Assembly: GCA_043779265.1 (NCBI GenBank)
Contig: JAYWEM010000089.1
Coordinates: 1 to 22,631 of the forward strand
DNA: 22,631 nucleotides
Direction of reading: 5' to 3'
From: a bacterium
GTDB taxonomy: Bacteria > Eisenbacteria > RBG-16-71-46
The position numbers and the translations under genes are program-made. The notes below the pieces were generated by a model that saw nothing but the letters and a program-made list of their open reading frames with translations, was not told where the DNA came from and ran no database searches. This document shows, piece after piece, positions 1 to 21,411 of the stretch; position 1 is the first letter of the stretch, and every line of letters begins with the position of its first letter.

Positions 1-552
1 GCTGTCCGAGGGGCGTCCGAGCACGCGGCGGCGCACGCGCTCCATGCCGACGTAGGGGTCGCCCACCATCTTGCCGTCGGCATCGAATCCGGTCATGTCC
101 TCGTCGTCGTCCCGATCGCGTTCGTCATCGTCGTAGCCGACGCTCTCGGCCTGCGGGTCGTACGGCCGCAGGTACCAAGGCAGATCGCGGAACGATTCGC
201 GCGATGCGATGGCGACGAGGAAGCCCTGACCGGTCGAGCGCTCCACCACCAACTCGGTGCGCGAGCCCTCGGGCGGAAGCCGCAGCGTGTGTCGGCCCTC
301 GACGAATCCACTGCCGCGCCTCCAGGGGTGGAGCACCTGGATGCGGCCCTCGGTGTCGATCTCGTACACGAGCAGATGCGCATCGTCGCTCGAGCGCACC
401 TTGATGGTCATCCGCTCACCCGGCTGGTAGACCGCGTCGTCGCCGCGATCCGTCCAGACCTCGACTCCGAGTGGTCCGGCGAGCGCCTCGGCCGGCATGG
501 CGAAGGCCCCCACGAGGAGGGCGAGTGCCGGGACGATGGATCGGAAGTTCAT
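1..552 (-). CDS. Secreted DUF4384-like domain protein (3' end runs off the window; not in the ORF track)
   Basis: Hand translation: GAGGAG SD then ATG at 552, MNFRSIVPALALLVGAFAMPAEALAGPLGVEVWTDRGDDAVYQPGERMTIKVRSSDDAHLLVYEIDTEGRIQVLHP... It has a signal peptide and the VWTD..Y.PGE....ID..G..L.P pattern I associate with DUF4384. The frame is open to base 1. Confidence 0.8.
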   Translation of the reverse strand, partial: MNFRSIVPALALLVGAFAMPAEALAGPLGVEVWTDRGDDAVYQPGERMTIKVRSSDDAHLLVYEIDTEGRIQVLHPWRRGSGFVEGRHTLRLPPEGSRTELVVERSTGQGFLVAIASRESFRDLPWYLRPYDPQAESVGYDDDERDRDDDEDMTGFDADGKMVGDPYVGMERVRRRVLGRPSDS

Positions 553-606
553 GACGTGCTCCTCACTGGCGGGACTCCGCGGAACCGGGCGCCGGTCGGC
601 TCCGAT

Positions 607-646
607 GCCCCGCCCTCTCGGGGATGATACCCCGGGAGGGCGGGGC
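607..646. repeat. GC-rich intergenic inverted repeat (about 17-bp stem, no U-tract)
   Basis: GCCCCGCCCTC-TCGGGG (607-623) / CCCCGG-GAGGGCGGGGC (630-646), lying between two co-oriented genes. Confidence 0.7.
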
Positions 647-660
647 GCTCTCCTGGAACG

Positions 661-1485
661 CTAGCGGATCCAAGCCACTGCTCGGCGCTGACCCGTGGTC
701 TCGTCGCGGACGCGCCGTGCGGCGAGTTCGGGATTGCCGGGGTCGGTCTGGTAAGCCCAGTCGAACACGACCTGGCCCGAGGTGAGGCTGGTGACCCTGA
801 ACTTCGCGTAGTGGTCATCCCGGGTCCAAACGACGTAGCAGTGACCGGGGATCAGCTCGACCGTCCCACTGGGCGACCAGCCCGAACTCGGGGCCCAGTC
901 CACCGCATCGAGGGTCGTGGCGTAGCCGGCGTCCTGGATATCGGTGAGCCCGTCGGCCGCGAACATCTGCGCGATGCTGCCGTTGTAGCCGTAAAAGACG
1001 TCGGTCGAGGAGTGATCGAAGGCCCGCGTCGCGCCCGATGAGAAGTCGTAGCCGGCGCTCGAGGGGTTGCTGACGAAGTTCGACAGCGTGCGGCCGAACC
1101 CGGCCGGTCGTGGGGTGTCGAACACGCTCTCGTAGGTCAGATCGCTCTCGTTGCCCTCGTGGTCGACCGCGGCGACGGCGAAGTAGCGGGTCGAGCCATT
1201 CGAGAGGCCCGAGACGACGAAGCTCGTGCCGCTCGTGGTGCCGACCCGATCGTAGGGACAACTGGACCCGGTGGCGCACTGCGCCATGTAGACGCGGTAG
1301 CCGGCGACGTCGTGCTCGGTGTTGCGAAGCCAGCGGAGCGTGGCCTGCTGATCGCCGGTGACGCTGATGAGGCCGCGTGGGGCGGCCGGGGGCGTGATGT
1401 CGCGCGGCGAGACGACCTTGTCGTCATCGCAACTGGTCAGCAGCGTCACGGACGCCAGTGCGATCGCGATAGTGGCAAGACGCAT
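661..1485 (-). CDS. Lipoprotein with fibronectin type III domain plus beta-rich C-terminal domain
   Basis: AGGAGG SD; lipobox-like LLTSC; FN3 pattern PAAPRGL...LRW...VAGYRVY...GLSNGSTRYFAVAAVD.EGNES. Confidence 0.85.
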   Translation of the reverse strand: MRLATIAIALASVTLLTSCDDDKVVSPRDITPPAAPRGLISVTGDQQATLRWLRNTEHDVAGYRVYMAQCATGSSCPYDRVGTTSGTSFVVSGLSNGSTRYFAVAAVDHEGNESDLTYESVFDTPRPAGFGRTLSNFVSNPSSAGYDFSSGATRAFDHSSTDVFYGYNGSIAQMFAADGLTDIQDAGYATTLDAVDWAPSSGWSPSGTVELIPGHCYVVWTRDDHYAKFRVTSLTSGQVVFDWAYQTDPGNPELAARRVRDETTGQRRAVAWIR

Positions 1486-1544: not shown

Positions 1545-1560
1545 CGCAACGGACATGCCA
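1545..1560 (-). promoter_or_regulatory. Sigma54 (-24/-12) promoter for the lipoprotein gene
   Basis: Minus strand TGGCAT-GTCCG-TTGCG versus consensus TGGCAC-N5-TTGCW, about 60 nt upstream of ATG 1485. Confidence 0.7.
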
Positions 1561-1676: not shown

Positions 1677-2082
1677 CGTGGTGTGCGCGCCTGTCTCAGG
1701 TGTGCGAACGGCGCGACACCGGATACTGGGGGACACCGGCCGGTGCTTCTCACAGCGTCCGCCTGGACATCCCCCAATGTAGGCGAGCGATATGACGTGG
1801 CCGGTGTCCGACCCCAGAGCTTCTGGAACCTCAGGTGGTTCACCGCGAACCGGGTTCCAGTGCGGTGAGGTCCGAGGCCGTCCCTCCGTCTGCTCCAGGG
1901 GTGCAACTCGAAGATGTCGTGAGATCCCGATTGGTAATCTCCAAGCTAGCCGGTAGCAGAGGCCGATGCGTTGTCCGTCAGACGGGGCTCGTACCCTCGA
2001 CCGACCCCTGCGGAACCGGCTAGCTCAGATTTCGAGGCCGGTGATCGCTCACCGGTTCTCTTTGGAGGTCCCCCCCTCCGAC
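1645..2082 (-). ncRNA. Candidate large structured non-coding RNA (~440 nt), family not recognised
   Basis: No credible ORF. Sigma54-type promoter immediately upstream. Seven consecutive stem-loop or multibranch domains, with G-U pairs and a GCGA tetraloop that favour the minus strand. Terminal hairpin at the 3' end. Confidence 0.55.
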
Positions 2083-2092
2083 GAAGTACACG

Positions 2093-2108
2093 AGCACCCC
2101 GCGTGCCA
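2093..2108 (-). promoter_or_regulatory. Sigma54 (-24/-12) promoter, predicted +1 near 2082
   Basis: Minus strand (T)TGGCAC-GCGGG-GTGCT: GG and GC at the correct spacing, one mismatch in TTGC. It lies just downstream of a sigma54 activator gene. Confidence 0.65.
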
Positions 2109-2236
2109 ACGCGGCCAACAGCTGTTCGGAAATCGACAAGAAGTGCGTTCACTTGATGTTACGGACCAGCGCACGAGAGCGGTGGTGAGCCCTCTCGGTG
2201 GCACGGACCACCCCGGATAGGAAGAGAAGTTCATGG

Positions 2237-2273
2237 AAAACGCCCCGCGCACGGAACTCGTTGCGCGGGGCGT
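2237..2273 (-). terminator. Rho-independent terminator downstream of the activator gene
   Basis: 12-bp perfect IR ACGCCCCGCGCA (2240-2251) / TGCGCGGGGCGT (2262-2273), followed by TTTT on the minus strand. Confidence 0.7.
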
Positions 2274-2392
2274 AGATGGATGGAAAGGAATTTGATAGCG
2301 CAATTCAGAAGAAAGTCTTCAGGTCGGGCTGCGATGGCAGGGGCGCCTGTGAGACACCTTCATGCCCGACTCTCGAAGTCAGGCAGAGATGT

Positions 2393-5300
2393 TCAGCGCT
2401 GCTCGAGCCCGAACGCCCGGATGCGCTGAAGAAGCGTGGGGTAGCTGAGCCCCAACTCCCGCGCCACGCGCGTCTTGTTACCGCGATTGCGCTCGAGCGC
2501 CTCGCCGATCAGCTGCCGTTCCATCTCGGTGACCGCGCTCTTGAGTGAGCGATCCCCGCGCGGCGGGGCACCCACCGCCACCGTGTCGCGCTGCAACACG
2601 GGAACGCGCGCCGACGACGCGGTGCTCTCGGCCACATCGGCCGGCAGCAGGTCGAGGCCGAGCGTGTCGCCCTCGTCGGCGAGCACGATCATCCGCTTCA
2701 CGGTTTTCTCGAGTTCGCGGACGTTCCCCCGCCACTCGTGATCCAGGAGCGCCTTGAGCACTTCCGGGGCGAAGCCGCGCACGGCCTTCTCCATCTGCCG
2801 CGAGTACACGGCGAGGAAGTGCTGCGCGAGCACCGGGATGTCCTCGCGCCGCTCGCGAAGCGAGGGCACTCGGACCGTGATGTCATTGAGTCGGTAGTAG
2901 AGATCCTCGAGGAAACGTCCGTCGCGGATCCGCTCGCGCAGATCGCTGCTCGTGGCGCAGACGACTCGCGCATCGACTCGCTTGGCGCGGGTCGCGCCGA
3001 CGGGGCGGATCTCGCCTCGGTCGAGCACATGCAGCAGCTTCGCCTGCACCGCCTCGGGAATCTTCTCGATCTCATCGAGGAAGATCGTGCCGCCGGCAGC
3101 CTCCTCGAACAGGCCCGACTTGTCGCGCGTCGCGCCGGTGAAGGCGCCTTGCACATAACCGAAGAGTTCGGATTCGAGCAGCGCCTCGGGCAGCGCGGCG
3201 CAATTGACCTGGACGAACGGCCGGTCGCGGCGCTTGGACTGCTCGTGCACGACCTGCGCGAACAGCCCCTTGCCCGTGCCGGTCTCGCCCATGAACAGCA
3301 GCGTCGCGTCGCTATCGCTCACCTTGCGCAGCAGGGTCAGGATGTCCGCCACTTCACGGGACTGGCTGACCACGCGCTCGGTCGAGGAACTCGGACGCAG
3401 CTGGTCTCGCAGTTGGCGATTCTCGACGAGGAGCAGCGAGCGCTGTGCCTCGACGATGCCGACCGCGGCGCTGTTGGCGAGGACCGCGAGCAGATTGAGG
3501 TCGCGCTGCTTGAACGCGCCCAGCAGGTTGTCGTTGAGGCGATCGACGAACACCATGCCGACCGACTGCGACGGGAAGTTGAGCGGCACGCAGACCAGCG
3601 AGCCCACGCCTTCGAGCGCCTCGGTCATCGCACGACTGAATCGAGGATCCGCGGCGACGCGGCTGGAGAACACCGGGCCATTCTCGGCGAAGCGCGCTCC
3701 GACCACATCCTCGAGCACGCGCAGCACCCGACGGGCGCGATCGCGACCCAATCCATGCTGGGCGACGACCTCGAGTCGGCCGGGGCTCGACGTGAAGGCG
3801 ACGAAGCCACGATCCCCGCCGGCGTGCTCGACCGCCAGCTTCACGACCTGGGACAACAGTCCGTCCATGTCCGAGGTCTCGCGGAAGAGCCGGTTGGCCT
3901 CCTCGAGCGCCCGGAACTCATTGCAGGTGGAGAGCGAGACGGCGACGTACTGACGCTCGATCTCACGGCGCAGCTGCGCCGCACGACCCTCGGCCTCGGG
4001 ATCGGCGTTCTCCGAAAGCCATGCCTCGGCCTGCTCGAGCAGCGTCAGCGCGTGATCGTACTGCTCGCGCTCGGCTTCGAGACGGGCCAGTGCCAACAGT
4101 GCCTCGGCTGCGAGTGCGACCACGCCGAGTTGACGGAAGATCGCGGCGGCACGGCGCGCGGCTTCGGCCACCGGCTCCAGCGGCAGGCGCAGACGAGCGC
4201 TCGTCGGCAGCAACGGCAGGTACTCGCCGAACGCGGCGAGCGTGCGTGCCAGCTCGAACGTCTCACCCAGTTGCTCGAAGTGCTCGGCGGCCTCACGCAG
4301 TCTCGACTCCATGGATGACACCTGGCCGCGCACCGCGTCGAGGCGCGCGAGCGCGCGCAGTGCGATGCCCTGCTCGATGCGATCTCCGAGTCGTTCGGCC
4401 AGCGCCAGGCCGCGAACGAGCAGCGTGTTCGCCTCCTCGACCCGACCGGTCAACTGGAGCGCCATGCCGATCCGGATCTCGAGTTCCATGACGAGGTCGC
4501 CGCGAGGGGCGATCGCCTTGGCGTCCTCGAGCGCAGGCTCGAGCCACGCGAGTGCTGCGGGGCCGTGGTCGCGGTCGATCTCGAGTTCGCCGAGGAATTC
4601 GCGGGCCAATAGCGCCTCGCGTCGCGCCGAACCCTTCTGAGCCAGTTCGAGGGCGAGCTGGAAGTGCTCCTCAGCCTGCTCCGCATTGCGGCGGCGGCGA
4701 GCGAGCATCCCGAGCGCAAGCCACGCAGCGGCCTCGCCCTGAGGGTGACTGAGTTCGCGGGCGATGCGGAGCGACTGGCGGAAGTGCTCATCCGCCATCT
4801 CCCACTGCCCGAGGCGGTAGCGGATCAGTCCGAGGTTCTGATGATGGATACGCATGCGGGCGTAGTAGCCCTTGCGCTCGTCGATCTGCAGCGCCTGCTC
4901 GAGCAGTCGGGTCGCCTCGCGCCACTCACGCAGATTCTTGTAAACGAGACCCAGCGAGTTGAGCGCCGAGACCAGACCTTCGGAGTCGTCGATGCGGCGG
5001 AACGTCGCGACCGAGTTCTGCAGCCAGTCGATCGCCTCCTGCGGCCGACCCAGCCGGGCCAGGCCATTGCCGAGCACGAGGGCCATGCGCGCGACCGTGC
5101 GATGGTCATCACTGTCGCGGAGGATGGCATACGCATAGCGCGCGTAGCGCTGGGAGCGACGATACTCGCCGGATTCGCCGTGGGTCGCGGCAAGCGACGC
5201 GGCGACCAGCGCACGTTCCCTGGGATCCTCGAGCACGCGACCGACTCGGCGCGCTTCGAGCGCGCGGGCCCGCGCCGCCGTGAACTCGCCGCGCAGATAC

Positions 5301-5503
5301 TCGGCGCGAGCGAGGCACAACAGAAGGCGAACACGATCGAGAACGGCGTCCGGGCGCGTCTCCGCCAGCGCCGCCCGGTAGGAATCCCGGGCGCCGACGA
5401 AGTTATCCGCTGCCAGATGAAGATCGCCGACCGATTCGTGCTGACTGGCGCCGGGGGGCGCTTGATTCGCACGCAATGGATCGGGGGGGATCGCTCGGTG
5501 CAC
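2393..5503 (-). CDS. Sigma54-dependent enhancer-binding protein: N-terminal TPR-like repeats + GAF + AAA+ + Fis-type HTH
   Basis: About 520 aa of TPR-like helices (e.g. ALNSLGLVYKNLREWREATRLLEQALQID); GAF-like segment (SLVCVPL...VGMVFVD...F...DLNLL); Walker A GETGTGKG; ESELFGYVQGAFTGA; Walker B IFLDE; RFLEDLYYRL; C-terminal GNKTRVARELGLSYPTL. GTG start with GAGGG SD. Confidence 0.93.
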   Translation of the reverse strand: MHRAIPPDPLRANQAPPGASQHESVGDLHLAADNFVGARDSYRAALAETRPDAVLDRVRLLLCLARAEYLRGEFTAARARALEARRVGRVLEDPRERALVAASLAATHGESGEYRRSQRYARYAYAILRDSDDHRTVARMALVLGNGLARLGRPQEAIDWLQNSVATFRRIDDSEGLVSALNSLGLVYKNLREWREATRLLEQALQIDERKGYYARMRIHHQNLGLIRYRLGQWEMADEHFRQSLRIARELSHPQGEAAAWLALGMLARRRRNAEQAEEHFQLALELAQKGSARREALLAREFLGELEIDRDHGPAALAWLEPALEDAKAIAPRGDLVMELEIRIGMALQLTGRVEEANTLLVRGLALAERLGDRIEQGIALRALARLDAVRGQVSSMESRLREAAEHFEQLGETFELARTLAAFGEYLPLLPTSARLRLPLEPVAEAARRAAAIFRQLGVVALAAEALLALARLEAEREQYDHALTLLEQAEAWLSENADPEAEGRAAQLRREIERQYVAVSLSTCNEFRALEEANRLFRETSDMDGLLSQVVKLAVEHAGGDRGFVAFTSSPGRLEVVAQHGLGRDRARRVLRVLEDVVGARFAENGPVFSSRVAADPRFSRAMTEALEGVGSLVCVPLNFPSQSVGMVFVDRLNDNLLGAFKQRDLNLLAVLANSAAVGIVEAQRSLLLVENRQLRDQLRPSSSTERVVSQSREVADILTLLRKVSDSDATLLFMGETGTGKGLFAQVVHEQSKRRDRPFVQVNCAALPEALLESELFGYVQGAFTGATRDKSGLFEEAAGGTIFLDEIEKIPEAVQAKLLHVLDRGEIRPVGATRAKRVDARVVCATSSDLRERIRDGRFLEDLYYRLNDITVRVPSLRERREDIPVLAQHFLAVYSRQMEKAVRGFAPEVLKALLDHEWRGNVRELEKTVKRMIVLADEGDTLGLDLLPADVAESTASSARVPVLQRDTVAVGAPPRGDRSLKSAVTEMERQLIGEALERNRGNKTRVARELGLSYPTLLQRIRAFGLEQR

Positions 5504-5595
5504 GGCTTGAACCCTCGATTTGACTCACAGATCCCGGTAGTAGTCCGGCGGTTCGGTCCGAACTACCTGCGACGGATCGAGACGGCTTTCGCCGA

Positions 5596-5895
5596 CTAGA
5601 TCCGTCGCTTCAGGAACTGCGAGAGCCAGAGTCTCGTCCACGCATGGAAGCTCGTGTCGCCTGCCTCTTCGCCAGCCGGCCGCATCGACGCCCGATCGAT
5701 CTTCGGGGGCGATGGAACGGTTTGACCGGTGAGGTCAGGCTCACCCGCACTGGGCGCGGCGACTGGTCGGGGCGGCGTGATCGAAGCGGTGCCGCGTCCG
5801 AGACGCTTGGCAGCTTCGGCCGTCGTCCCGAGCATCGTCAGGCTCAGGGTGGCGAGCAGCAGTGTGTGGAGGATCCTGTTACGGAGCTTCTCCAT
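5596..5895 (-). CDS. Small secreted protein or pre-pro-peptide (99 aa; alternative GTG start at 5907)
   Basis: GGAGGGAG SD; Sec signal MEKLRNRILHTLLLATLSLTMLGTTAEA; Pro-rich low-complexity middle containing AGEPD; Trp/aromatic basic C-terminus FHAWTRLWLSQFLKRRI. Confidence 0.75.
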   Translation of the reverse strand: MEKLRNRILHTLLLATLSLTMLGTTAEAAKRLGRGTASITPPRPVAAPSAGEPDLTGQTVPSPPKIDRASMRPAGEEAGDTSFHAWTRLWLSQFLKRRI

Positions 5896-6014
5896 CGCGT
5901 TGTCCACTCCCTCCGTCGACGGACGTCAGGGTAGTCAGGAATGTTCCCCGCAGAACTCTAGATGAGCCCGACGGGACGGCACTGGTGAGGGGACCTTCGG
6001 TTGAGCGCGCCCTC

Positions 6015-6044
6015 AGTGTCCGCCTCCTGCGAAACCTCCGTCAA
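6015..6044 (-). promoter_or_regulatory. Possible sigma70 promoter for the peptide-activator unit
   Basis: TTGACG-N18-GACACT on the minus strand in the intergenic region upstream of the small gene. Confidence 0.4.
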
Positions 6045-6076: not shown

Positions 6077-7042
6077 TCACTCCAGCCCGAGACGGTCGTC
6101 GGCCGCCCAGCGAGCCAGACCGTATCGAAGGCCCTGGGTCGAGCACACGAGACCAGGTGCATCGAAGCGCCTGAGCAGCGCCTCGACCACTAGTGCACCG
6201 GCACCGATGATGTCAGCTCTCCCCTCACCCATCACGGGCAGCTTGCGTCGCGCCTCGGGGCTCGCCTCGACCAGATCGACGATCATCTTCTCGGCACGCT
6301 CGCGCGATACGAACCAGCCCTCGAGGAGGGCCGGGTCGTACTCGGTGAGCCCGCGATCCATGGACGCGAGGACGGTGACGGTCCCGCCGACGCCTGCGAG
6401 GACGGTCGCCCGATTGGGGAGGTATGCACAGCCATGCATGATTTCATGTGCGATCACCTCGCGGGCATTCGCGATCTCGGCCGCGCTGGGTGGACTTCCG
6501 GGCAGCAGACGCTCGGTCAGACTCACGGCCCCCGAAGGGATGCTCTGCCAGCGGCCCGGGCGTGACCCCACACCGCTCACGACCTCGGTGCTCCCGCCTC
6601 CCAGATCGAAGACCACATTCTGGCTGTTGCGCGCCTGTTGTCCGAGCCCGAGCACGACCGAGGCGTAGCCGAGCCTGGCCTCCTCATCGCCGGTCAGGAT
6701 GCGAATGGGCACACCCGCACGGGCTCCGATCGCCTCGGCGACCGCTGGCCCGTTGGTCGCAGTCCGGATCGCAGCGGTCGCCGCAGCCAGCAACCGCTCG
6801 GCGCCGAGGCCCCGGGCGCGACGGATGAACTCGTGCGCGATGTTGCCCGCGCGAGCCGCCGTGTCCTCGGCGATCAGGCCGGACTCATGCAGACCGCGCC
6901 CCAATCGGCAGGACTCGCCGGCTCTCGCCACCGAGAGGATCGGGCCGGTCCAGGCCCCGCCCTCGGGGATGTCCGCCACCAGGAGTCGGACGCTGTTCGA
7001 TCCGATATCGATTGCACCGACACGCATATGTCCTGGGGTCAC
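6077..7042 (-). CDS. ppx: Ppx/GppA family phosphatase, short form without HD domain (alternative ATG at 7027)
   Basis: GAIDIGSNSVRLLV, ATAAIR.A.N, ILTGDEEARL, DLGGGSTE, GVGGT, RADII, GLRYG motifs of the ASKHA Ppx/GppA family. Confidence 0.9.
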   Translation of the reverse strand: MTPGHMRVGAIDIGSNSVRLLVADIPEGGAWTGPILSVARAGESCRLGRGLHESGLIAEDTAARAGNIAHEFIRRARGLGAERLLAAATAAIRTATNGPAVAEAIGARAGVPIRILTGDEEARLGYASVVLGLGQQARNSQNVVFDLGGGSTEVVSGVGSRPGRWQSIPSGAVSLTERLLPGSPPSAAEIANAREVIAHEIMHGCAYLPNRATVLAGVGGTVTVLASMDRGLTEYDPALLEGWFVSRERAEKMIVDLVEASPEARRKLPVMGEGRADIIGAGALVVEALLRRFDAPGLVCSTQGLRYGLARWAADDRLGLE

Positions 7043-8684: not shown

Positions 8685-8712
8685 GCCGCATCTGCCACAA
8701 TCGAGTGTGCAC

Positions 8713-10206
8713 ATGAAACTGCGCACCCGTCTGCTGGCTGCGTTGCTCGCATTCGCCTTCCTGCCGACGTTGGTGATGACGGTGTTCACGCTCGAGCTGT
8801 TCGGCCGTGCGACGGACCGTTGGTTCCTGCCCGGCGTCGATCGCGCGCTGGGCGCCGCGGTCGGAGTGAGCCGTGCGCCACTCGCGCGACTCGAGGCCAC
8901 CGTGCTCGATCGCGCCGATGACTGGGCCGGCGGACTTCGGGACCTTCCACTCGACGCGCGCGGGCGCAGCGCGCTGCGCGACGCCGTACACGACGCCGGG
9001 CTCGACTTCGCCCAGGGGTATGCGCGCGTGGGAGAACGTTGGCAGCTGCTGGAGACGGTCACCGCCGCCGGCCCACCGGACACGCTCGACCTCTCGAACG
9101 CCATCGGCAATGCACTCGCCGGTGGCCGCATCGTGCGTGACGACCGAGGCGCGCTGGCTGGTGTGTCGCAGGCCGGCGAGGAGATGGCGCTGGTCGCCGG
9201 CGTTCGCCTGCCGCAGGGCTACTTCGAGCGTCTCGATGATGTCGTCCGCGCGCGCGAGTACTACCCGCGCCTCGCCGTGCTCGTCGATGTGCAGCGCCGC
9301 TATGTGTGGTTGCTCGTGCTCGGCCTCGGCCTCGTGCTCACGCTACTGGCGCTCGGGACGGCACAGGCCCTCGCACGGAGTCTCTCGAGACCGCTGGGAG
9401 CACTCGCTCACGGCTTCGAACGAGTCGCCGAGGGCGACCTCACGGCGCGTGTCCCCGAGACCGGGCCGCAGGAACTGCGAATGCTGGCCGCCTCGTTCAA
9501 CGGCATGACCGCCCGCCTCGCCGATGCGCGCACGCAGTTGGCCGTCGCCGAACGCGAGGCGGCTTGGCGGGATGTGGCACGCAAACTCGCGCACGAGATC
9601 AAGAATCCGCTGACGCCCATGCGGCTCTCGTTGCATCGCCTGCAACGGCGTGCCGGTCTGGTGCCCGAGGACCAGCGGTCGGCCGTCGCCGACAGTCTCG
9701 AGGCGATGCTCAACGAGGTCGAGCACCTGACACGCCTCGCCGAACAATTCTCGCAATACGCGCGCCTTCCCGAGCCACGACGCGAGCACGTCGATCTGGC
9801 GAAACTGGCGCGCGACGCGGTCTCGCTGCACGAGCCCGAGCACCTCGTCCTGCGCTCGAACGCGCTCGATCCCTCGCCGGTCATCGGGGACCCCCTGCTT
9901 CTGTCACGCGCGCTCCACAATCTCCTGCTCAATGCCTGCGAGGCGAGTTCCGAAGGCGCCGAGGTCGAGGTCCGTACCGGCGTCACCGAGAGCCGGGCGT
10001 GGGCCGAGGTCCTCGATCGCGGCCCGGGCGTGCCGACGACTCTCGCCGAACAGATCTTCGAGCCGTATGTCAGCACCAAGAACCGCGGCAGCGGACTCGG
10101 GCTCTCGCTCGTCCGCGATGTCGCCAACCAGCATGAGGGTTCGATCACCCTGTCACCCCGCGAGGGCGGTGGCATGGTGGCTCGCTTCGAGATGCCGTCG
10201 GCCTGA
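8713..10206 (+). CDS. Membrane sensor histidine kinase, NtrY-like (2 TM, HAMP, HisKA, HATPase; no obvious PAS)
   Basis: AAWRDVARKLAHEIKNPLTP H-box of NtrY type; NLLLNA, DRGPG, IFEPY.STK..GSGLGL boxes. Confidence 0.9.
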   Translation: MKLRTRLLAALLAFAFLPTLVMTVFTLELFGRATDRWFLPGVDRALGAAVGVSRAPLARLEATVLDRADDWAGGLRDLPLDARGRSALRDAVHDAGLDFAQGYARVGERWQLLETVTAAGPPDTLDLSNAIGNALAGGRIVRDDRGALAGVSQAGEEMALVAGVRLPQGYFERLDDVVRAREYYPRLAVLVDVQRRYVWLLVLGLGLVLTLLALGTAQALARSLSRPLGALAHGFERVAEGDLTARVPETGPQELRMLAASFNGMTARLADARTQLAVAEREAAWRDVARKLAHEIKNPLTPMRLSLHRLQRRAGLVPEDQRSAVADSLEAMLNEVEHLTRLAEQFSQYARLPEPRREHVDLAKLARDAVSLHEPEHLVLRSNALDPSPVIGDPLLLSRALHNLLLNACEASSEGAEVEVRTGVTESRAWAEVLDRGPGVPTTLAEQIFEPYVSTKNRGSGLGLSLVRDVANQHEGSITLSPREGGGMVARFEMPSA

Positions 10207-10217
10207 CGCCGAGGAGG

Positions 10218-11603
10218 ATGAAGATGTCCGAACGCTTCACCGTGCTCACCGTGGATGACGATCTCGCGGTCCGTCGCAGCCTGAGGGGACTCCTCGAGGA
10301 CGTCGGTCACGAGGTGCTCGAGTCGCCGAACGCCGAGCATGGGTACGCCACACTCGGCCGCCAGCGAGTCGACGCCGTTCTGCTCGACCTCCGCATGCCG
10401 GGCGAGCATGGGCTCGATGCACTCATCCGGATCCGCGAACAGGCGCCCGACACGGCCGTCATCATCGTCTCGGGTGAGGGAACCGTGGAACACGCGCTCA
10501 AGGCCGGTCAGCGCGGCGCGTTCGACTTCATCATGAAGCCCGTGAACGATCCGCAGCACCTCCTCGAGACGCTGGATGAGGCCGTGCGCATCACACGTCT
10601 GCGTCGCGCGACCGAGGCAGCCGCACGGGCGGCTTCAGCGCCCCGCCCTTCCTCCCCCGCACTCGCGGACGACCTCGGGATGATCGGCACCAGCGCCGCC
10701 ATCGAACGTCTGCGCGAGCAGCTGAGGAAGGTGGCACCCTCGAACGGGCGCGTCTTGATCCTGGGCGAGAACGGTGCCGGCAAGGAACTCGTGGCGCACG
10801 CGATCCACGCGCTGTCCAAGCGGTCCGAGGGCGCGTTCGTGAAGCTCAATTGCGCCGCGATCCCGAAGGACCTGCTCGAGTCCGAGTTGTTCGGCTTCGA
10901 GAAGGGCGCGTTCACCGGCGCGGTTCAGAGCAAGAAGGGCCGCCTCGAGATGGCCGATGGCGGCACGTTGTTCCTCGACGAGATCGGCGATCTCGCGCTC
11001 GAGGCGCAGGCCAAGCTGCTGCGTGCACTCGAGACCGGGGAGATCGAACGGCTCGGCGGCACCAAGAGCGCCAAAGTGGACGTACGACTGCTCGCGGCCA
11101 CCAACAAGGACCTCGCCGACGCCGTGCAGCAGGGCGAGTTCCGCGAGGACCTCTACTTCCGGCTCAACGTGCTACCGCTTCAGGTGCCGGCGCTGCGAGA
11201 GCGGCGGGGCGACGTGCTGCGGCTCGCCGAGCACTTCCTGGCGCAGTTCGCCGGGTCCGAGGGACGCATCGTTCAAACGTTCGAATCGGATGCCATCGCC
11301 CTGCTCGAGGACTACCACTGGCCCGGGAATGTGCGGGAACTCCGGAATCTCATGGAGCGAGCGGTCGTACTGGTGGCGGGCCCGGCGATCACCGTCGCGG
11401 ACCTGCTGCCGTGGCTCGAGGCGCGGCCGGAGGAGGGCGAGGACAGTGGTCTCAAGGGCAAGGTGGCCCGCAGCGAGATCGACTCGATCCGACGGGCGCT
11501 GGAGTCCGCCGACTGGAACGTCACGCAGGCCGCTGCCGGCCTCGGGATCGACCGCACCAACCTCCATCGCAAGATGCGCAAGTACAGCATCGCCCGACGG
11601 TGA
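10218..11603 (+). CDS. Sigma54-dependent response regulator, NtrX/NtrC family
   Basis: GAGGAGG SD; receiver (VDDD, LLDLRMPG, KP); GENGAGKE; ESELFGFEKGAFTGA; FLDEIG; Fis HTH. Confidence 0.93.
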   Translation: MKMSERFTVLTVDDDLAVRRSLRGLLEDVGHEVLESPNAEHGYATLGRQRVDAVLLDLRMPGEHGLDALIRIREQAPDTAVIIVSGEGTVEHALKAGQRGAFDFIMKPVNDPQHLLETLDEAVRITRLRRATEAAARAASAPRPSSPALADDLGMIGTSAAIERLREQLRKVAPSNGRVLILGENGAGKELVAHAIHALSKRSEGAFVKLNCAAIPKDLLESELFGFEKGAFTGAVQSKKGRLEMADGGTLFLDEIGDLALEAQAKLLRALETGEIERLGGTKSAKVDVRLLAATNKDLADAVQQGEFREDLYFRLNVLPLQVPALRERRGDVLRLAEHFLAQFAGSEGRIVQTFESDAIALLEDYHWPGNVRELRNLMERAVVLVAGPAITVADLLPWLEARPEEGEDSGLKGKVARSEIDSIRRALESADWNVTQAAAGLGIDRTNLHRKMRKYSIARR

Positions 11604-11720
11604 GGCCCATGCGCCACAACATGAGTGGCGAAGCGGCCACATCCGCCGAGAGCGACGTCGGGGACGGGTCACAAACTCAAGCCCCACATGTGGTTGCGCT
11701 GGGAGTCCGTGGCGATTTCC

Positions 11721-11736
11721 CGGCACGGGGATTGCC
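11721..11736 (+). promoter_or_regulatory. Sigma54 (-24/-12) promoter for the OM barrel/DUF4390 genes
   Basis: CGGCAC-GGGGA-TTGCC matches YGGCAC-N5-TTGC, 42 nt before ATG 11779. Confidence 0.72.
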
Positions 11737-11778
11737 CATCATCTCCACCGCACCCATGGTCACAGCGCGGAGGTCCTG

Positions 11779-13080
11779 ATGCGACGTCTCACCACCTGGA
11801 TGCTGCTCCTCATCGCCCTGGTCGCCCCGGAGATCGCTCGGGCGGACCTGGCGCGCGGCGACACCATGGTGTTCCAGCCGACCGAGCAGCAGCGCACGGA
11901 CGACGACTCGCCGAAGAGCCGCCATCGCATCGGAGTCGGTCTCCCCGATGACGATTGGCTCCAGGCGCCCTTCGGCGATCGACTGCTGACCCATCCCGAT
12001 CCTTGGTGGGGAGGCGATCGCAGACGGGCTCGCCAGCTCGATGTCGCGCTCGACTACAACCGGGTCGACCTGCTGCGCTACGGCCTCGCCTTCCAGGCGC
12101 AGGCGCCCGAGACCATGCAGCCGCGCGTCGGCGCGAGACTCGAATACTCGACCGGTCGGCGCCGTGTGCTCTACGGCATCCAACTCGAACAGCCCCTCGC
12201 CCCTCCCGCACGTCTGGTGCTGGGTGCCAGCCTCGTGCGGCGGACCGACCACAGCGATCTCCAGCAGGTCGATGACGCCGAGAACTCGCTCGCGCTGCTG
12301 CTCGCACGTCAGGACTATCGCGACTACTTCGAGCGTGAGGGAGCCGGGCTCTACGTCTCCTGGCGAGTTCCCGACTTCTCGACCGTGAGCGCCCATCTGC
12401 GCGGAGATGACTTCCGCTCGCTCGCTCGAGCGCGCCACGTGACGTCGTGGTTCGAGAAGGACCGGCCGCTGCGCGACAACCCGGCGATCGACGAGGGCCG
12501 GGCGCGCCGGGCCCTGCTGCGATTCGAGCGCCTGGCGCACCAGACGAAACGCACCCGCGCCGGCTTCTACCACTGGGTCGAACTCGAGCGCGCAGGAGGC
12601 CAACTGGGCGGCGACTTCGACTACACGCGTGCGCTCGCCGATCTGCGCAGCGTGCTCCGCCTCTCACCCGCAGCGACCATGTCTTTGCGCGGCGTCGCCG
12701 GCTCGATGCTCGATGGCGTACTGCCACGGCAGATGGAGTTCTCGGTCGGCGGCGTCGACGGCCTTCGCGGGCATCCGCTCGGCGCCTTCCGTGGCGACCA
12801 GATGGTGTTGATGCAAGCCGAGTACACCTTCGGTCTGTGGACCCTCGACTCCAACGGCCAGGGCTCGGGCTCGGGCCTCAATGTCATCGCGTTCGTGGAC
12901 GCCGGCACCGCGTGGCATCAGCCTGCCGCTCGATGGGATGCGGGCCGCCAGAAACTCGGCGTCGATGCCGGAGTAGGGCTCGCCACGGGCGAGAACGACA
13001 TCCGGATCACGTTCGCCCGGAACCTGCAGGAACCCGACGCCGACTTCGTCGTCCAGGTTCGGCTGCAGCGGCCCTTCTAG
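11779..13080 (+). CDS. Outer-membrane beta-barrel protein (Omp85/BamA-like C-terminal barrel, no POTRA evident)
   Basis: GGAGG SD; signal peptide MRRLTTWMLLLIALVAPEIARA; VGGVDGLRGH (VRGF-like loop); FVDAGTAW; amphipathic last strand ending in Phe. The N-terminal 274 aa of the track ORF is spurious overlap. Confidence 0.8.
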   Translation: MRRLTTWMLLLIALVAPEIARADLARGDTMVFQPTEQQRTDDDSPKSRHRIGVGLPDDDWLQAPFGDRLLTHPDPWWGGDRRRARQLDVALDYNRVDLLRYGLAFQAQAPETMQPRVGARLEYSTGRRRVLYGIQLEQPLAPPARLVLGASLVRRTDHSDLQQVDDAENSLALLLARQDYRDYFEREGAGLYVSWRVPDFSTVSAHLRGDDFRSLARARHVTSWFEKDRPLRDNPAIDEGRARRALLRFERLAHQTKRTRAGFYHWVELERAGGQLGGDFDYTRALADLRSVLRLSPAATMSLRGVAGSMLDGVLPRQMEFSVGGVDGLRGHPLGAFRGDQMVLMQAEYTFGLWTLDSNGQGSGSGLNVIAFVDAGTAWHQPAARWDAGRQKLGVDAGVGLATGENDIRITFARNLQEPDADFVVQVRLQRPF

Positions 13081-15061: not shown

Positions 15062-16174
15062 TCAGGCGGGCGTGGCGGAGTCCTGAATCGGCGGCGCGGG
15101 GGCCGCTGGAGCCGGGCCCTCGGGCGCTGCGCCACGCTCCGGACTGCCGATCCGGCTCAACAGGGCGGCGCCCGTGCCGATCGTCATCAGGCCGAGGAAC
15201 TGCAGCATCCCGGCCAAGTGGAAGAACAGCGCCAGCGTGCGCAGCGAGCCCTCGCCGCTCCACAACACGGCACCGATCACACCGAAGATGGTGACGAGCA
15301 GCGAGCCCGCGGCGATGGGCGCCAGCTGACCGCCTTCGCCGAGCCGCCGCCTCGTCAACTTGCAGCCGAGCACGTAGGCGCCTGCGAGATACCCCGCGAA
15401 CGAGAGTCCGAAGTAGAGGAAGGGCATGAGCACCGCCACCGGGGCGCCCACCACCGTGACGAGCAGCAGAACGGCCGCCACCACCGCCAGCGGGCCCGAG
15501 AGGATGCCGAGTCCGAGCGAGACCGCGGTGCGCCGCGAGGCCATGCGCGCCACGCGCACCAGCCGGTCGGGGAAGATCGCCGCGAGCACCCAGCCGAAGA
15601 ACAGAGTCACGAGCCAGCCGAGCAGAAGCGTCGCGAGGACGACCGGGAGTGCAGGCAGCCCCAGTGTGAGCAGCGGAAGGAATCCGATCGAGACGCTCTC
15701 GCCACCGACACTCGCGCCACTTGGCGTCACCAACTGCCCGCCGACCGCGACGGCATCCTCGGTGACCCTCGCACCCGGGGACAGCGAGACCGATCCGAAC
15801 ACCGCGACGGCGGAACCATTCACATTGCCGTCCACGTGCACATCGCCGAACACCGCGACCACGTCACCGTCGATGCTGTCGCCGGAATTCACGCGAGCAT
15901 CCGAGAACAACCGGACGATACCCGCCCCGCTGTAGTCGACATCGCCGAGGTCGACATCGGCACGGAACCGGAGTCCGCTGTCGGCGGACCAGGTCGTGCT
16001 GTCGCCATGCTCGCGGGTGATCTCCACGCCACGGGAGTCGACGCGCACGCGCTCGACACGTTGGCCCTTGGCGTCCGTCACCTTCGCCCGAGCCTCGATC
16101 GTCTGAGCCGAGGCGGTCGGAGCCATCAAAGCCAAGCCGAGCATCGCGCCGACCCACATGCGGCTGTTAGCCAC
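15062..16174 (-). CDS. Membrane protein with bactofilin-like (polymer-forming) repeats and C-terminal TM helices
   Basis: GTG at 16174 after AAGGGG, overlapping the anti-sigma stop; signal peptide; IDGDVVAVFGDVHVDGNVNGSAVAVFGSV repeats; about 5 hydrophobic helices. Confidence 0.8.
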   Translation of the reverse strand: MANSRMWVGAMLGLALMAPTASAQTIEARAKVTDAKGQRVERVRVDSRGVEITREHGDSTTWSADSGLRFRADVDLGDVDYSGAGIVRLFSDARVNSGDSIDGDVVAVFGDVHVDGNVNGSAVAVFGSVSLSPGARVTEDAVAVGGQLVTPSGASVGGESVSIGFLPLLTLGLPALPVVLATLLLGWLVTLFFGWVLAAIFPDRLVRVARMASRRTAVSLGLGILSGPLAVVAAVLLLVTVVGAPVAVLMPFLYFGLSFAGYLAGAYVLGCKLTRRRLGEGGQLAPIAAGSLLVTIFGVIGAVLWSGEGSLRTLALFFHLAGMLQFLGLMTIGTGAALLSRIGSPERGAAPEGPAPAAPAPPIQDSATPA

Positions 16175-16766
16175 GGGAGACCCCCTTGCGGCTCTCACGA
16201 GGCCGCATCCACCACAACACCAAGGCACAGGCCAGAACGGCGGCCACGGAAACCGAGAGGATGACCGGCGACTGCAACGGGGCCAGCAGAGCACGTCCGA
16301 GCGGAGCGAGCCCTTCGAGCAGACTCCCCGCGGCCCCGAACAGATCGACGGTGCGAAGCACTGCACCATTGAGGCTGTGCATCACGAACACGAACAGATC
16401 GCCGATCGCGGCGACCGCGTCGCCTGCGAGTGCGCGCACCCAACTCCTCGGACCCGGCAGCAGGATCGCCGCGGCGAGCGTGCTTATGCTGACCGCGAGG
16501 CCGGTTCCGAATGCGACACCGAACGCCCGGCTCCACACGGGTGAGGGTTCGGGATGGGTGCGAGCGAGGACGCGATCGGCGAAGCCGCGCGAGGGCGACA
16601 GGAGTGGCATGGAATCAAGCGCGCCGAAGACGCGGCGCAGCAGCGCCAGCTCGCCCGCGCATGCGGCGCAGATGATGAGGTGCGCCTCCATCTGAAGGCG
16701 CTCCTCGGCGGGCAGCAGCCCCTCGAGGTGATCCTGCAGCTTGTTCCTCTCGTGACAGCGCGTCAT
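16167..16766 (-). CDS. Zinc-binding (ZAS, zf-HC2) transmembrane anti-sigma factor
   Basis: HLIICAAC (HxxxCxxC); TM segments; ATGA overlap with the ECF sigma gene. Confidence 0.88.
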   Translation of the reverse strand: MTRCHERNKLQDHLEGLLPAEERLQMEAHLIICAACAGELALLRRVFGALDSMPLLSPSRGFADRVLARTHPEPSPVWSRAFGVAFGTGLAVSISTLAAAILLPGPRSWVRALAGDAVAAIGDLFVFVMHSLNGAVLRTVDLFGAAGSLLEGLAPLGRALLAPLQSPVILSVSVAAVLACALVLWWMRPRESRKGVSRG

Positions 16767-17332
16767 GACTGCCTCTCCTCGATGCGTGCTTTCAGCAACG
16801 CTCGTGCGCGATGGATGCGCGCCTTGACCGTACCGAGCGGGAGCTGGAGCGCTTCCGCGATCTCCTCATAGGACAGGTCCTGCTGGTGCCGCAACACGAC
16901 GACGATCCGATAGTGCTCGGGCAGCGAGTCGATGAGCTCGTTCGCGCGCGACTGCTCCTCCCGATGCGACGTCACTTCATCCGGCTGGAGCCCGGGATCC
17001 GGGATCTCGATCGTCCGCTCCTCACTGGAGCCCGGCTCACTCTGACTGAGCGAGATCGTCGGGACCCGCTTGCGACGCAGATGGTCGATGGCGAGCCGCG
17101 ATGCGATCGTGAACAGCCAGGCGGTGAACGGACGCTCGGGATCGTAACGATCCAGGGCCCGGTAGACCCGGACGAACGTTTCCTGGGCCAGGTCCTCGGC
17201 ATCCTCGGGCCTGCGCACGACACGCATCAGGACCGAGAACACCGGCCGCTCGAAGCGGCGAACCAGCTCTCGGAACGCCCGCTGATCACCGGTCCGGCAC
17301 CGTCGGATGAGTTCGGCGTCGTCGCCGCTCAT
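16763..17332 (-). CDS. ECF sigma factor, SigW/RpoE-like
   Basis: DAEDLAQETF, FTAWLFTIA...IDHLR (region 2); LSYEEIAEALQLPLGTVKARIHRAR (region 4). Confidence 0.93.
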   Translation of the reverse strand: MSGDDAELIRRCRTGDQRAFRELVRRFERPVFSVLMRVVRRPEDAEDLAQETFVRVYRALDRYDPERPFTAWLFTIASRLAIDHLRRKRVPTISLSQSEPGSSEERTIEIPDPGLQPDEVTSHREEQSRANELIDSLPEHYRIVVVLRHQQDLSYEEIAEALQLPLGTVKARIHRARALLKARIEERQS

Positions 17333-17357
17333 ACCGCCACTACCGGATATCTCTCGA

Positions 17358-17384
17358 TACGGGGCGGACGTCGATGAGGTTTCA
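17358..17384 (-). promoter_or_regulatory. Autoregulatory ECF promoter (SigW-type)
   Basis: TGAAAC-N17-CGTA upstream of the sigma gene, similar to B. subtilis SigW TGAAAC-N16-CGTA. Confidence 0.7.
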
Positions 17385-17395
17385 TGAGGGGCCGG

Positions 17396-17425
17396 ACATT
17401 AGGAGTGCCGTCAGGCGAGGGTCAA
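17396..17425 (-). promoter_or_regulatory. Possible sigma70 promoter for the ECF operon
   Basis: TTGACC-N18-TAATGT on the minus strand. Confidence 0.45.
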
Positions 17426-17479
17426 GAATCATTGCTTCATGCGGGATTCCCGCCCCGAGCGCGGCCCCTCGCATCCCGG

Positions 17480-18809
<1,330 letters not shown>

Positions 18810-20308: not shown

Positions 20309-20385
<77 letters not shown>

Positions 20386-20391
20386 AACGGA

Positions 20392-20430
20392 GAGCCGAGG
20401 TGGGGGAACCTGCCTCGGCTCGACCCTTTT
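20392..20430 (+). terminator. Hairpin/terminator downstream of the tRNA
   Basis: GAGCCGAGG-TGGG-GGAA-CCTG-CCTCGGCTC (GNRA loop), followed by GACCCTTTT. Confidence 0.6.
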
Positions 20431-20476
20431 CGGGCCGCGCTGGCGACCGACGGCAATCGGTGCCTGACTGCTGCGT

Positions 20477-21334
20477 CTACACCCTGTCGATGAGGTGCGT
20501 CGGCTCTGGCGTCTGCCAGTCCGACATCGCCCCGTGTACCCGCTCCGCCTCGCGACGGATGCATTCGTCGCTGAGCTTCGCGTAGAGCTGAGTGGTCACA
20601 ACCGAAGCGTGACCGAGGATCTGCTGCAACGACGGCAGGCTACCCCCGCCCTCGATCCAACGGCAAGCGAAAGTATGGCGGAGCTGATGGACGTGGAACC
20701 GGGCGAGCCCCGAGTTGCGCTGGACGAACCGGTTGAACGAGCCCGCCGCCCCCTCGGAGTAGGGCACGAGCCGTGCTGGCCTCGAGAGGATCTCGCGGAC
20801 GATACCCGGGCTGAGCGGTACGCGCCGAACCCGAGTCGACTTGGTGTGGCTCACAACCAACATCCCGCCTTCGACATGGGAGGCCTCGGCGCGGACGAGC
20901 TCACCCCACCTGAGACCGGTCGCCAGCGCCAGCCGGACGATGAAGGCGTGGGGCTCGGGGATGGCCTTGACGACGTCGACCTCCGGGTCGAGCAGGCGAT
21001 CCGGCGGCTCCTCCTGGATCCGGGGCATGACGCGGCGCGGCCACGGTGACTTCGCCAGGCGCTCGGTCTCGACCGCCCAGCGGAGCATGCACCTGGCGTC
21101 CGTGAGCACGTGGCGGACGCTGCGGGGCGCGAGCCCGGTCGACTCGAGGTGCAGGCGATACTCGCGGATGTCGTCAGCACCGAGCGACACGAGGGCCCGC
21201 GCGCCCATGAACGGGTCGAGGTAGTCGCGCACGCGTTGAGCCGCCATGCCCATGTTCTTCGCGCTCCGCTGTGTTCTCACGTAGATGGCGAGCCACCGGT
21301 TGGCGGCCGCTGATACCGTGAGGTCATCGCCCAT
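20477..21334 (-). CDS. Tyrosine recombinase/integrase, Xer-sized (alternative GTG at 21346)
   Basis: Catalytic set intact: TGLRWGE (R), HTKS (K), HQLRH (HxxR), LGH, TTQLY (Y). Core-binding domain begins LTVSAAANRWL. No arm-binding domain. Confidence 0.93.
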   Translation of the reverse strand: MGDDLTVSAAANRWLAIYVRTQRSAKNMGMAAQRVRDYLDPFMGARALVSLGADDIREYRLHLESTGLAPRSVRHVLTDARCMLRWAVETERLAKSPWPRRVMPRIQEEPPDRLLDPEVDVVKAIPEPHAFIVRLALATGLRWGELVRAEASHVEGGMLVVSHTKSTRVRRVPLSPGIVREILSRPARLVPYSEGAAGSFNRFVQRNSGLARFHVHQLRHTFACRWIEGGGSLPSLQQILGHASVVTTQLYAKLSDECIRREAERVHGAMSDWQTPEPTHLIDRV

Positions 21335-21411
21335 GGATTCGGACACCCTTCGGGGGCTTCCGTTCCATCACTCCACCCCGTTAGTACCGTCACCCTGGCA
21401 CCGTGGCGCCC

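Follow-up and report, generated by a model that had tools for sequence, protein, structure and literature searches.

Background

Intracellular signalling by peptides and their receptors, described for Bacillota, is typified by the RRNPP systems (Rap/Phr, NprR/NprX, PlcR/PapR and AimR/AimP), in which, as outlined in PMC10075063, a small gene of 10-100 amino acids (aa) encoding a Sec-type propeptide stands directly beside the gene for a cytoplasmic tetratricopeptide-repeat (TPR) receptor of about 250-500 aa; Rap-Phr propeptides with several pheromone copies exist (PMC11343458). Sigma-54 activators are linked to regulatory RNAs in other bacteria. In Vibrio, the sigma-54 activator LuxO transcribes small RNA (sRNA) genes whose products act back on activator and signal synthase/receptor mRNA (PMC3730234). 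The regulatory RNA gene crcZ of Pseudomonas has its own sigma-54 promoter and lies directly downstream of the activator gene cbrB in conserved synteny (PMC8871633), and in Myxococcus the sRNA gene pxr, with a predicted sigma-54 promoter and a functional first stem-loop in its product, lies about 260 bp downstream of the gene for an NtrC-like activator (PMC5684412). Here we describe a locus of Candidatus Eisenbacteria, an uncultured phylum of soil and sediment, in which a gene for a small exported protein, a gene for a TPR-GAF-AAA+ sigma-54 activator and a structured RNA follow one another. The locus lies in contig JAYWEM010000089.1 of assembly GCA_043779265.1, whose 22,631 nucleotides (nt) are referred to as the window.

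A model that saw only the DNA and its open reading frames (ORFs) had proposed RRNPP-like peptide signalling wired to sigma-54 at this place (the original prediction). The goal of this work was to follow up that proposal. The three-part module proves to be real and spread across the phylum, and two of its components, the small protein and the RNA, belong to families not described before; a literature search of titles and abstract openings, which took in few subscription papers and no supplements, returned no description of this peptide, this RNA or their combination.

Results

Layout of the module

All elements of the proposed circuit are on the minus strand, in the order ppx, 99-aa ORF, 1036-aa activator gene, sigma-54 site, gap, second sigma-54 site, Fn3 lipoprotein gene and DUF4384 gene. 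The module itself is made up as follows:

5596..5895, minus strand: exported precursor protein of 99 aa, with signal peptide, spacer, G-E-P-D core, Pro-rich linker and amphipathic Trp/Arg tail (ORF translation, homolog alignment)
2393..5503, minus strand: TPR (about 12 repeats)-GAF-AAA+-HTH sigma-54 activator of 1036 aa, start codon GTG (Pfam, structure model, alignment)
2093..2108, minus strand: sigma-54 promoter of the RNA, GG-N10-GC (pattern scan, conservation)
1731..2079, minus strand: structured non-coding RNA of about 350 nt (fold z, conservation, covariation)

The fixed order of small signal-peptide gene, repeat-domain sigma-54 activator gene and folded non-coding RNA sequence is kept across Candidatus Eisenbacteria. 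The locus type also turns up in records titled with other phyla (L051, L069, L078, L085, L088, L106, L119 and others), whose labels may be wrong; in a quick tree, activators from records labelled with other phyla group with Eisenbacteria.

The small precursor gene

The 99-aa ORF is a real gene. Translated from its ATG it has a basic N-region, a hydrophobic stretch, the residues T-A-E-A-A, a Pro-rich body with A-G-E-P-D and a Trp/Arg tail, and the gap between its stop codon and the activator GTG, put at about 90 nt before, is 92 nt. In closer loci this gap (5504-5595) holds a partly conserved hairpin motif.

A small secreted ORF had been expected beside homologous activators, and it is found there almost without exception. 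In unfiltered ORF lists, 28/28 loci with usable upstream DNA (L022 and L030, which have none, stand outside this count) and a further 7/7 loci had, just ahead of the activator, an ORF with a signal peptide and a core of the form G[DE]xD or SEPD; the 16 loci initially scored as misses all carry variant cores, one of them truncated. Across the 79 distinct loci drawn from 92 complete ones (24 partial loci were dropped, and L024 was scored from a separate unfiltered ORF list), every activator is preceded by a signal-peptide ORF with the core. The same holds for 67 of the 68 loci with room upstream in a set of 80 metagenome loci that were selected on the TPR part alone and not de-duplicated. Distant families carry the small ORF in 26/28 loci examined, the exceptions being one locus without upstream DNA and one without a listed ORF, with two further loci outside the count.

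The protein changes fast: mean identity among precursors is 16%, only the start Met, G51 and D54 reach 90%, and the differences at codon positions 1/2/3 (380/330/547 across 14 close pairs) are a modest coding signal for such a protein. It matched no Pfam and no NCBIfam family, and its look-alikes in the protein atlas are Eisenbacteria clusters without a name. Neither lack of conservation nor a folded protein of known function, two outcomes that the original prediction had named as refuting, was seen. In 78 homologs the length is 80-126 aa (median 105). Signal-peptide features, called by rule and not by SignalP, comprise a hydrophobic region in 78/78, a positive N-region in 77/78 and [AV]-x-A in 65/78, with a lipobox in 0/78. 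When the source genome was scanned for signal-peptide ORFs before long genes, the core appeared in 2/51 candidates (the contig C118 pair described below and an unrelated membrane-protein piece), a weak control because the hydrophobicity filter missed the window's own ORF.

The core motif and the predicted mature peptide

The core G-E-P-D spans G51-D54 (5745-5734). Real precursors had the motif 78 times against 4 in shuffled ones, a figure that is partly circular because those ORFs were selected using the motif. In nine loci (L021, L116, L169, L185, L234, L274, L296, L304 and L305) the core begins 0-1 residue past the point where the signal is predicted to be cleaved, so that the spacer between signal and core is dispensable. 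Some precursors have doubled cores in which the residues after the glycine are repeated as well (GDPDQYA twice in L082 and L275, GDPDEIIE twice in L296); L304, L305 and L274 have near repeats, and L016, L045 and L092 show no repeat of the following residues. Core positions +4 to +8 are clade-specific. From the cores at the cleavage site and the repeated post-glycine residues we infer a mature peptide of 7-8 residues that starts at the glycine, which for the window would be G-E-P-D-L-T-G. A [KR]P...P-x-S/A pattern before the glycine in the window's family could be a second cut site. That the active form is such a Gly-initial 7-8-mer, re-imported by a peptide permease, we hold to be an even call.

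The TPR-GAF-AAA+ activator

The activator is, as predicted, a TPR and GAF protein of 1036 aa. Pfam assigned TPR families, GAF (residues 545-683), Sigma54_activat (712-877; PF00158, E 2e-64) and HTH_8 (992-1031) and found no receiver domain in it, and in the structure model residues 19-526 form about 12 helix pairs; the mean predicted local distance difference test score (pLDDT) is 87.5 overall and 93.5 in the TPR part. It bears the hallmarks of sigma-54 enhancer-binding proteins, that is, an AAA+ core with GAFTGA, Walker A/B, an arginine finger and a Fis-type HTH, the GAFTGA and Walker motifs being invariant or nearly so among 79 aligned homologs. No named NCBIfam equivalog matched at its cut-off. 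Homologous activators are 1024-1080 aa long and single-copy in 39/41 relatives, and the TPR part matches 201/206 phylum genomes, paralogs counted in.

First helices of TPR repeats line the TPR groove. Conserved Asn, Lys and Arg residues (N182, K189, N223, R150, R270, R295 and R344) lie on alternate helices, the first helix of repeats 4-9. By sequence and fold searches alike, the closest solved TPRs among natural proteins are those of the peptide-binding LGN/Pins and of TONSOKU; the Foldseek matches listed for the TPR part were TONSOKU, LGN/Pins, OGT and APC/C, the full-length model returned AAA+ domains only, and the protein-atlas look-alikes of the TPR-GAF part are clusters of a generic TPR or GAF kind. 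When TPR residues 19-530 were co-folded, without controls, with precursor residues 41-70, the scores were 0.43, 0.26 and 0.27 against a mark of 0.32, which we take as no evidence either way. The original prediction had expected a G[ED]PD core co-varying with the TPR domain: the core is conserved, and the co-variation did not emerge, since TPR columns tracking Glu versus Asp in the core (38 versus 7 sequences) were only clade markers, and a quick tree clusters by kinship and not by co-evolution. On balance we consider a contact between core and TPR fairly probable.

The RNA and its sigma-54 promoter

The sigma-54 site at 2108-2093, already named in the original prediction, is the only pattern match in the window, and on its own it is weak because 0.23 matches are expected by chance and 22/100 shuffles had one. 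Taken with the 5' hairpin downstream, it is found in 173/206 phylum genomes, single copy in all but one, with 0 control matches. In each of the 37 loci that were selected by activator and include downstream DNA, a hairpin of the form GGAGG-(G-rich loop)-CCTCC starts 13-14 nt past the promoter GC, and families without the strict promoter-hairpin pattern show variant hairpins. The unit is present in 32/33 metagenome loci picked by TPR; the remaining one, L224, lacks it after the activator.

A non-coding RNA had been predicted downstream of the activator, and a conserved, covarying structure does lie there, at 2079-1731, just past the stretch covered by the prediction. It consists of a 5' hairpin with a G-rich loop (2079-2064), a long hairpin (2028-1941), a variable middle and a 3' hairpin (1809-1731) with a G-rich loop (1776-1765), and has a fold z of -4.2 in the window. 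In the alignment of the long middle hairpin (60/76 sequences) 97% of the cells are paired and two-sided changes occur in 7 pairs, and the 3' stem (60/72 sequences aligned) has two-sided changes in 9/9 pairs; both exceed 500/500 shuffles and every slid control, in a test where the structures were derived from the same alignments and the sequences are kin. The 5' hairpin is the only part common to all forms of the RNA. Minimal RNAs of 129-136 nt (5' hairpin, one long hairpin and U-tract) occur in L043, L062, L069, L073, L088 and their kin, together with G-D-[GN]-D-G-x-V-x-K cores, and in other families the RNA reaches 450-600 nt.

Rfam gave no match at gathering score in the window, only chance-level matches (E 0.4-2.2), and nothing at E <= 1 when 20 stretches of about 300 nt from homologs were searched; none of its models of Qrr, CrcZ, Pxr, Csr/Rsm, 6S or SRP matched the RNA. 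An SRP- or 6S-like reading of the short RNAs had no Rfam support, and a 6S candidate was located elsewhere in the source genome. A coding role was rejected, an ATG past the hairpin being found in 10/90 only and the lengths ranging from about 130 to 600 nt. Among sequencing runs, none was listed as carrying the RNA. The RNA is, with high confidence, a real sigma-54 transcript.

Upstream of the RNA promoter, and at the next promoter downstream, the following candidates were placed:

2282..2298, minus strand: predicted candidate enhancer site 1, AT-rich, A-T-[AC]-A-A-N5-T-T-[TG]-A-T-like (top palindrome and 7-mers upstream of the RNA promoter, 131 distinct loci)
2220..2236, minus strand: predicted candidate enhancer site 2, degenerate in the source genome (in homologs, a further AT-rich site is spaced about 60-65 bp from site 1)
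2242..2271, minus strand: hairpin earlier read as a terminator, doubtful (short T tail, missing from several homologs)
1699..1720, minus strand: GTGT-N12-ACAC palindrome, candidate enhancer of the second promoter (top palindrome in 30/76 loci)
1545..1560, minus strand: second sigma-54 promoter, ahead of the lipoprotein operon (pattern, conservation)

The two AT-rich palindromes are enriched about 190 and 125 bp ahead of the RNA promoter and are unlike the palindrome at the second promoter, which suggests that the adjacent activator acts on the RNA and another activator on the lipoprotein operon; we regard it as likely that the RNA is driven by the adjacent activator. The terminator that had been called after the activator gene (2271-2242) did not hold up, because its T tail is short, it is missing in several homologs and it sits between the two palindromes. 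The RNA promoter usually lacks a T before the TGC of the -12 element, and the second promoter has the canonical TTGC (131 and 76 loci).

The leader of the peptide-activator operon

The leader ahead of the small ORF contains three elements:

6015..6044, minus strand: predicted sigma-70-like promoter of the peptide-activator operon, -35 at 6044-6039 and -10 at 6020-6015 (TTGAC...GATACT consensus, 45 aligned leaders)
5987..5996, minus strand: conserved C-run (AGGTCCCCTC) near the leader 5' end, complementary to the 5' loop of the RNA (leader alignment)
5907..5914, minus strand: ribosome-binding site of the small ORF (conserved GGAGGGAG ahead of the ATG)

A strict promoter scan of the window did not list the first of these. 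GGTCCC[CT], just past the promoter and at a fixed distance of about 103 nt from the ATG, is found in 38/45 and 5/5 closer loci and in 3/28 distant ones, against a background of 0.021 per 200 nt of genome, and the C-run is present in 52/63 metagenome loci. In the window it forms 10 contiguous pairs with the 5' loop of the RNA. Over 97 loci the duplex averages -23.9 kcal/mol, whereas shuffled leaders average -20.1 and coding controls -18.3, and it is better than the shuffle mean in 85/97. Changes in the loop are mirrored in the leader in L274, L304 and L302, and unmirrored in L276, L286 and L288.

Several points tell against pairing. It reaches p <= 0.05 in only 37/97 loci, which are kin; the window's own leader misses that level, being matched by 30% of shuffles; and it is absent from several distant families. 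The C-run pairs with the ribosome-binding site in 26/44 leaders (not in the window) and could be kept as an anti-Shine-Dalgarno element alone. Since the C-run can fold onto the ribosome-binding site, pairing with the RNA could free that site and raise rather than lower translation. We lean slightly towards the RNA pairing with the peptide-activator leader. A role of the C-run as an activator operator was set aside, the enhancer-like sites being AT-rich and unlike it.

Paralogous pairs and wider distribution

Twelve paralogous TPR matches were found in five near-complete genomes, and 8 were fetched. All 8 have an upstream signal-peptide ORF, with cores GDPD, GEPD, ADPD, DDPD, GDPT or SSPD; five of the 8 have a GAFTGA-type motif, one is itself split and two have no such motif. 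A ninth pair lies in the source genome itself (contig C118, about 15400-18400, minus strand), where a G-D-P-D precursor overlaps the start of an 823-aa TPR sigma-54 activator; three weaker TPR matches in that genome have no such upstream ORF. Sigma-54 sites stand directly before the peptide gene in two paralogous pairs (L267:6394, minus strand; L270:2386, plus strand) and look like autoinduction. Downstream of a paralogous pair, at L271:2300-3172 (minus strand), come a sigma-54 site and a non-coding stretch, possibly a second activator-linked RNA, and then tRNA-like genes that precede a gene resembling that for elongation factor Tu.

TPR-GAF-AAA relatives of full length extend well past the Eisenbacteria clusters; of 20 clusters looked up, 3 bear organism names, from Krumholzibacteria and Zixibacteria. 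A scan of viral contigs gave 63 candidate stretches, among which no relative was confirmed.

Neighbouring genes and host

The module is flanked by two genes that are commonly found with it:

6077..7042, minus strand: ppx/gppA-family phosphatase gene, the usual upstream neighbour, circuit role not implied (Pfam PF02541)
661..1485, minus strand: Fn3-containing predicted lipoprotein, the usual downstream gene (weak fn3 match; downstream in 74 loci)

The ppx gene is upstream in most close loci and missing from several distant ones. The second sigma-54 promoter, with its own palindrome, precedes the Fn3 lipoprotein and a DUF4384 protein (1-1485, minus strand). Elsewhere in the window, 8707-13080 on the plus strand encodes a histidine kinase, a receiver-type sigma-54 activator, which is a candidate for the second promoter, and an Omp85-family protein (Pfam) that fits a diderm host; at 20309-21346 a tRNA-Met lies next to small unknown ORFs and a gene for a phage integrase, which probably mark one border of an integrated element. 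The source genome has a sigma-54 gene and three family-5 solute-binding proteins.

Discussion

The proposed circuit and its alternatives

Peptide gene and activator are very probably coupled in function. The order of the genes, the make-up of the signal peptides, the conserved core, the intact motifs of the activator, the unit of promoter and RNA, the covarying stems and the complementary sequences are all observations. From them we propose a circuit whose processing, uptake, peptide-TPR contact, expression, sign of control and passage between cells are read from genomic anatomy. The small protein would likely be exported and trimmed to a short acidic peptide starting at the core glycine; the peptide would return to the cytoplasm through a peptide ATP-binding cassette (ABC) permease and bind the TPR groove of the activator, and so switch transcription of the neighbouring RNA from its sigma-54 promoter. 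The G-rich loop at the 5' end of that RNA is predicted to pair with the peptide-activator mRNA leader as feedback. The whole chain, from export, trimming and return to TPR binding, sigma-54 transcription and leader pairing, we rate a little short of an even chance.

Several observations weigh against it. The core hardly varies over the phylum and is common to the paralogous pairs of a single genome, and in this it differs from pheromones that diverge rapidly; the locus has no dedicated protease or importer gene, and in a diderm the peptide must cross or stay in the periplasm. The conserved amphipathic tail has no place in RRNPP precursors and is left unexplained by the circuit. No RRNPP receptor was among the Foldseek matches listed, one Rap structure was matched by sequence only (E 0.004), and the GAF domain is a possible second, small-molecule input.

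A near-constant core, so different from fast-diverging pheromone dialects, makes a self-sensing or envelope-monitoring role possible, and we give a serious minority chance to a monitor of export or of the envelope, in which the TPR would meet the core on precursor that was not exported, or on a periplasmic fragment taken back into the cell, and no signal would pass between cells. Vertical single-copy inheritance, the exported proteins encoded by the following sigma-54 operon and an outer membrane that hinders exchange all agree with such a monitor; duplicated cores with repeated residues and cores at the cleavage site better fit a processed ligand than a stalled precursor, and the resemblance to autoinduction of the sigma-54 sites before two paralogous peptide genes also tells against the monitor.

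Less probable is that the N-terminal segment and the amphipathic tail keep the small protein on the membrane, where it would hold or release the activator as an anti- or co-activator. The tail is amphipathic in all clades (median hydrophobic moment 0.49 versus 0.33 in the middle of the precursor homologs) and has Trp in 71/78, and total length is held at 80-126 aa despite freely varying spacers; yet the tails have the length and hydrophobicity to span a membrane in only 4/78, and the [AV]-x-A and positive N-region counts given above would place the core outside the cytoplasm.

Scarcely better placed, and if anything a shade weaker, is the idea that the RNA is mainly a protein sponge (CsrA/Rsm- or CrcZ-like) with an incidental leader match, which would leave the peptide-activator pair coupled. 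CsrA, widespread in the phylum, is found in 38/41 relatives and 26/32 distant genomes (in the source genome at contig C18, 3339-3566), FliW and Hfq were not found in the 92%-complete source genome, and GGA stands in both conserved loops; against this, GGA is not enriched (9.9 observed versus 9.6 shuffled in 65 RNAs), the minimal RNAs of about 133 nt have 2-5 GGA, and the promoter-hairpin unit is kept where CsrA was not found (G086, G087, G095, G200 and G040). Mere synteny of three uncoupled neighbours, for which one may cite that the wider neighbourhood (ppx, lipoprotein gene) is conserved too and that the genomes are kin, is highly improbable, as nine other loci with different neighbours also pair a peptide gene with a TPR gene, and loss of ppx or of the lipoprotein gene leaves peptide gene, activator and RNA side by side.

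The circuit proper could be widened to phylum-wide peptide signalling between diderm cells, in which a Gly-initial acidic heptapeptide cut from the exported precursor gates the TPR-GAF sigma-54 activator, the G-loop RNA, of a new class, sets the threshold by pairing with the precursor-activator mRNA, paralogous pairs whose cores vary serve as separate channels within a cell and the design extends to Krumholzibacteria and Zixibacteria; this we think rather unlikely. If the circuit is true, its receptor would read a peptide encoded in the genome and act directly on sigma-54, uniting two signalling kinds in a diderm phylum without a cultured member. The module adds a family of small proteins and one of RNAs, both new, and allows the ligand to be predicted precisely. 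The parts can be rebuilt in laboratory E. coli with a short synthetic peptide, so that diderm use of RRNPP-like peptides is directly testable.

Comparison with known systems

The likeness to RRNPP systems, as far as the cited accounts outline them, lies in a small Sec-type propeptide gene adjoining a cytoplasmic TPR receptor, and in the doubled cores, which recall multi-pheromone propeptides (PMC11343458). At 99 aa in the window and 80-126 aa in homologs, the precursor is borderline for the 10-100 aa of RRNPP propeptides. The receptor has 1036 aa and not 250-500, and its N-terminal TPR feeds a GAF-AAA+ sigma-54 module; the TPR resembles LGN and TONSOKU in both searches, with no solved RRNPP receptor ranked above other TPRs among the matches listed; and the peptide gene lies upstream, with an amphipathic tail and a nearly invariant core, in a diderm host. 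Of the RRNPP-like signalling originally predicted, the Sec signal, the TPRs and the adjacency therefore stand, whereas membership does not: a 1036-aa receptor with an LGN-like TPR in a diderm is not an RRNPP member.

The RNA arm compares with three systems which, in the accounts cited, are all phosphorylation-controlled. With LuxO-Qrr it shares a sigma-54 activator driving an RNA that feeds back (PMC3730234), a relation predicted here from sequence; LuxO is a phosphorylated response regulator served by membrane kinases and small-molecule autoinducers, whereas the present activator has no receiver domain, and here Hfq was not found, the seed is G-rich and Rfam gave no match. As at cbrB-crcZ, an RNA gene with a sigma-54 promoter directly follows the activator gene, an order conserved between genomes; CbrB is a regulator of the two-component type and its RNA CrcZ sequesters Crc/Hfq, in contrast to an RNA without an Rfam match in a genome where Hfq was not found. 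With PxrR-Pxr the module has in common a sigma-54-promoter sRNA gene downstream of that for an NtrC-like activator; PxrR pairs with a histidine kinase, whereas the activator here pairs with a peptide gene, and Rfam gave no match between the RNAs. We propose that the module likely works like an RRNPP system joined to an output in the style of LuxO-Qrr, and that its three elements likely form a peptide-sensing circuit with RNA feedback, a kind of which the literature searched describes parts only, in other bacteria.

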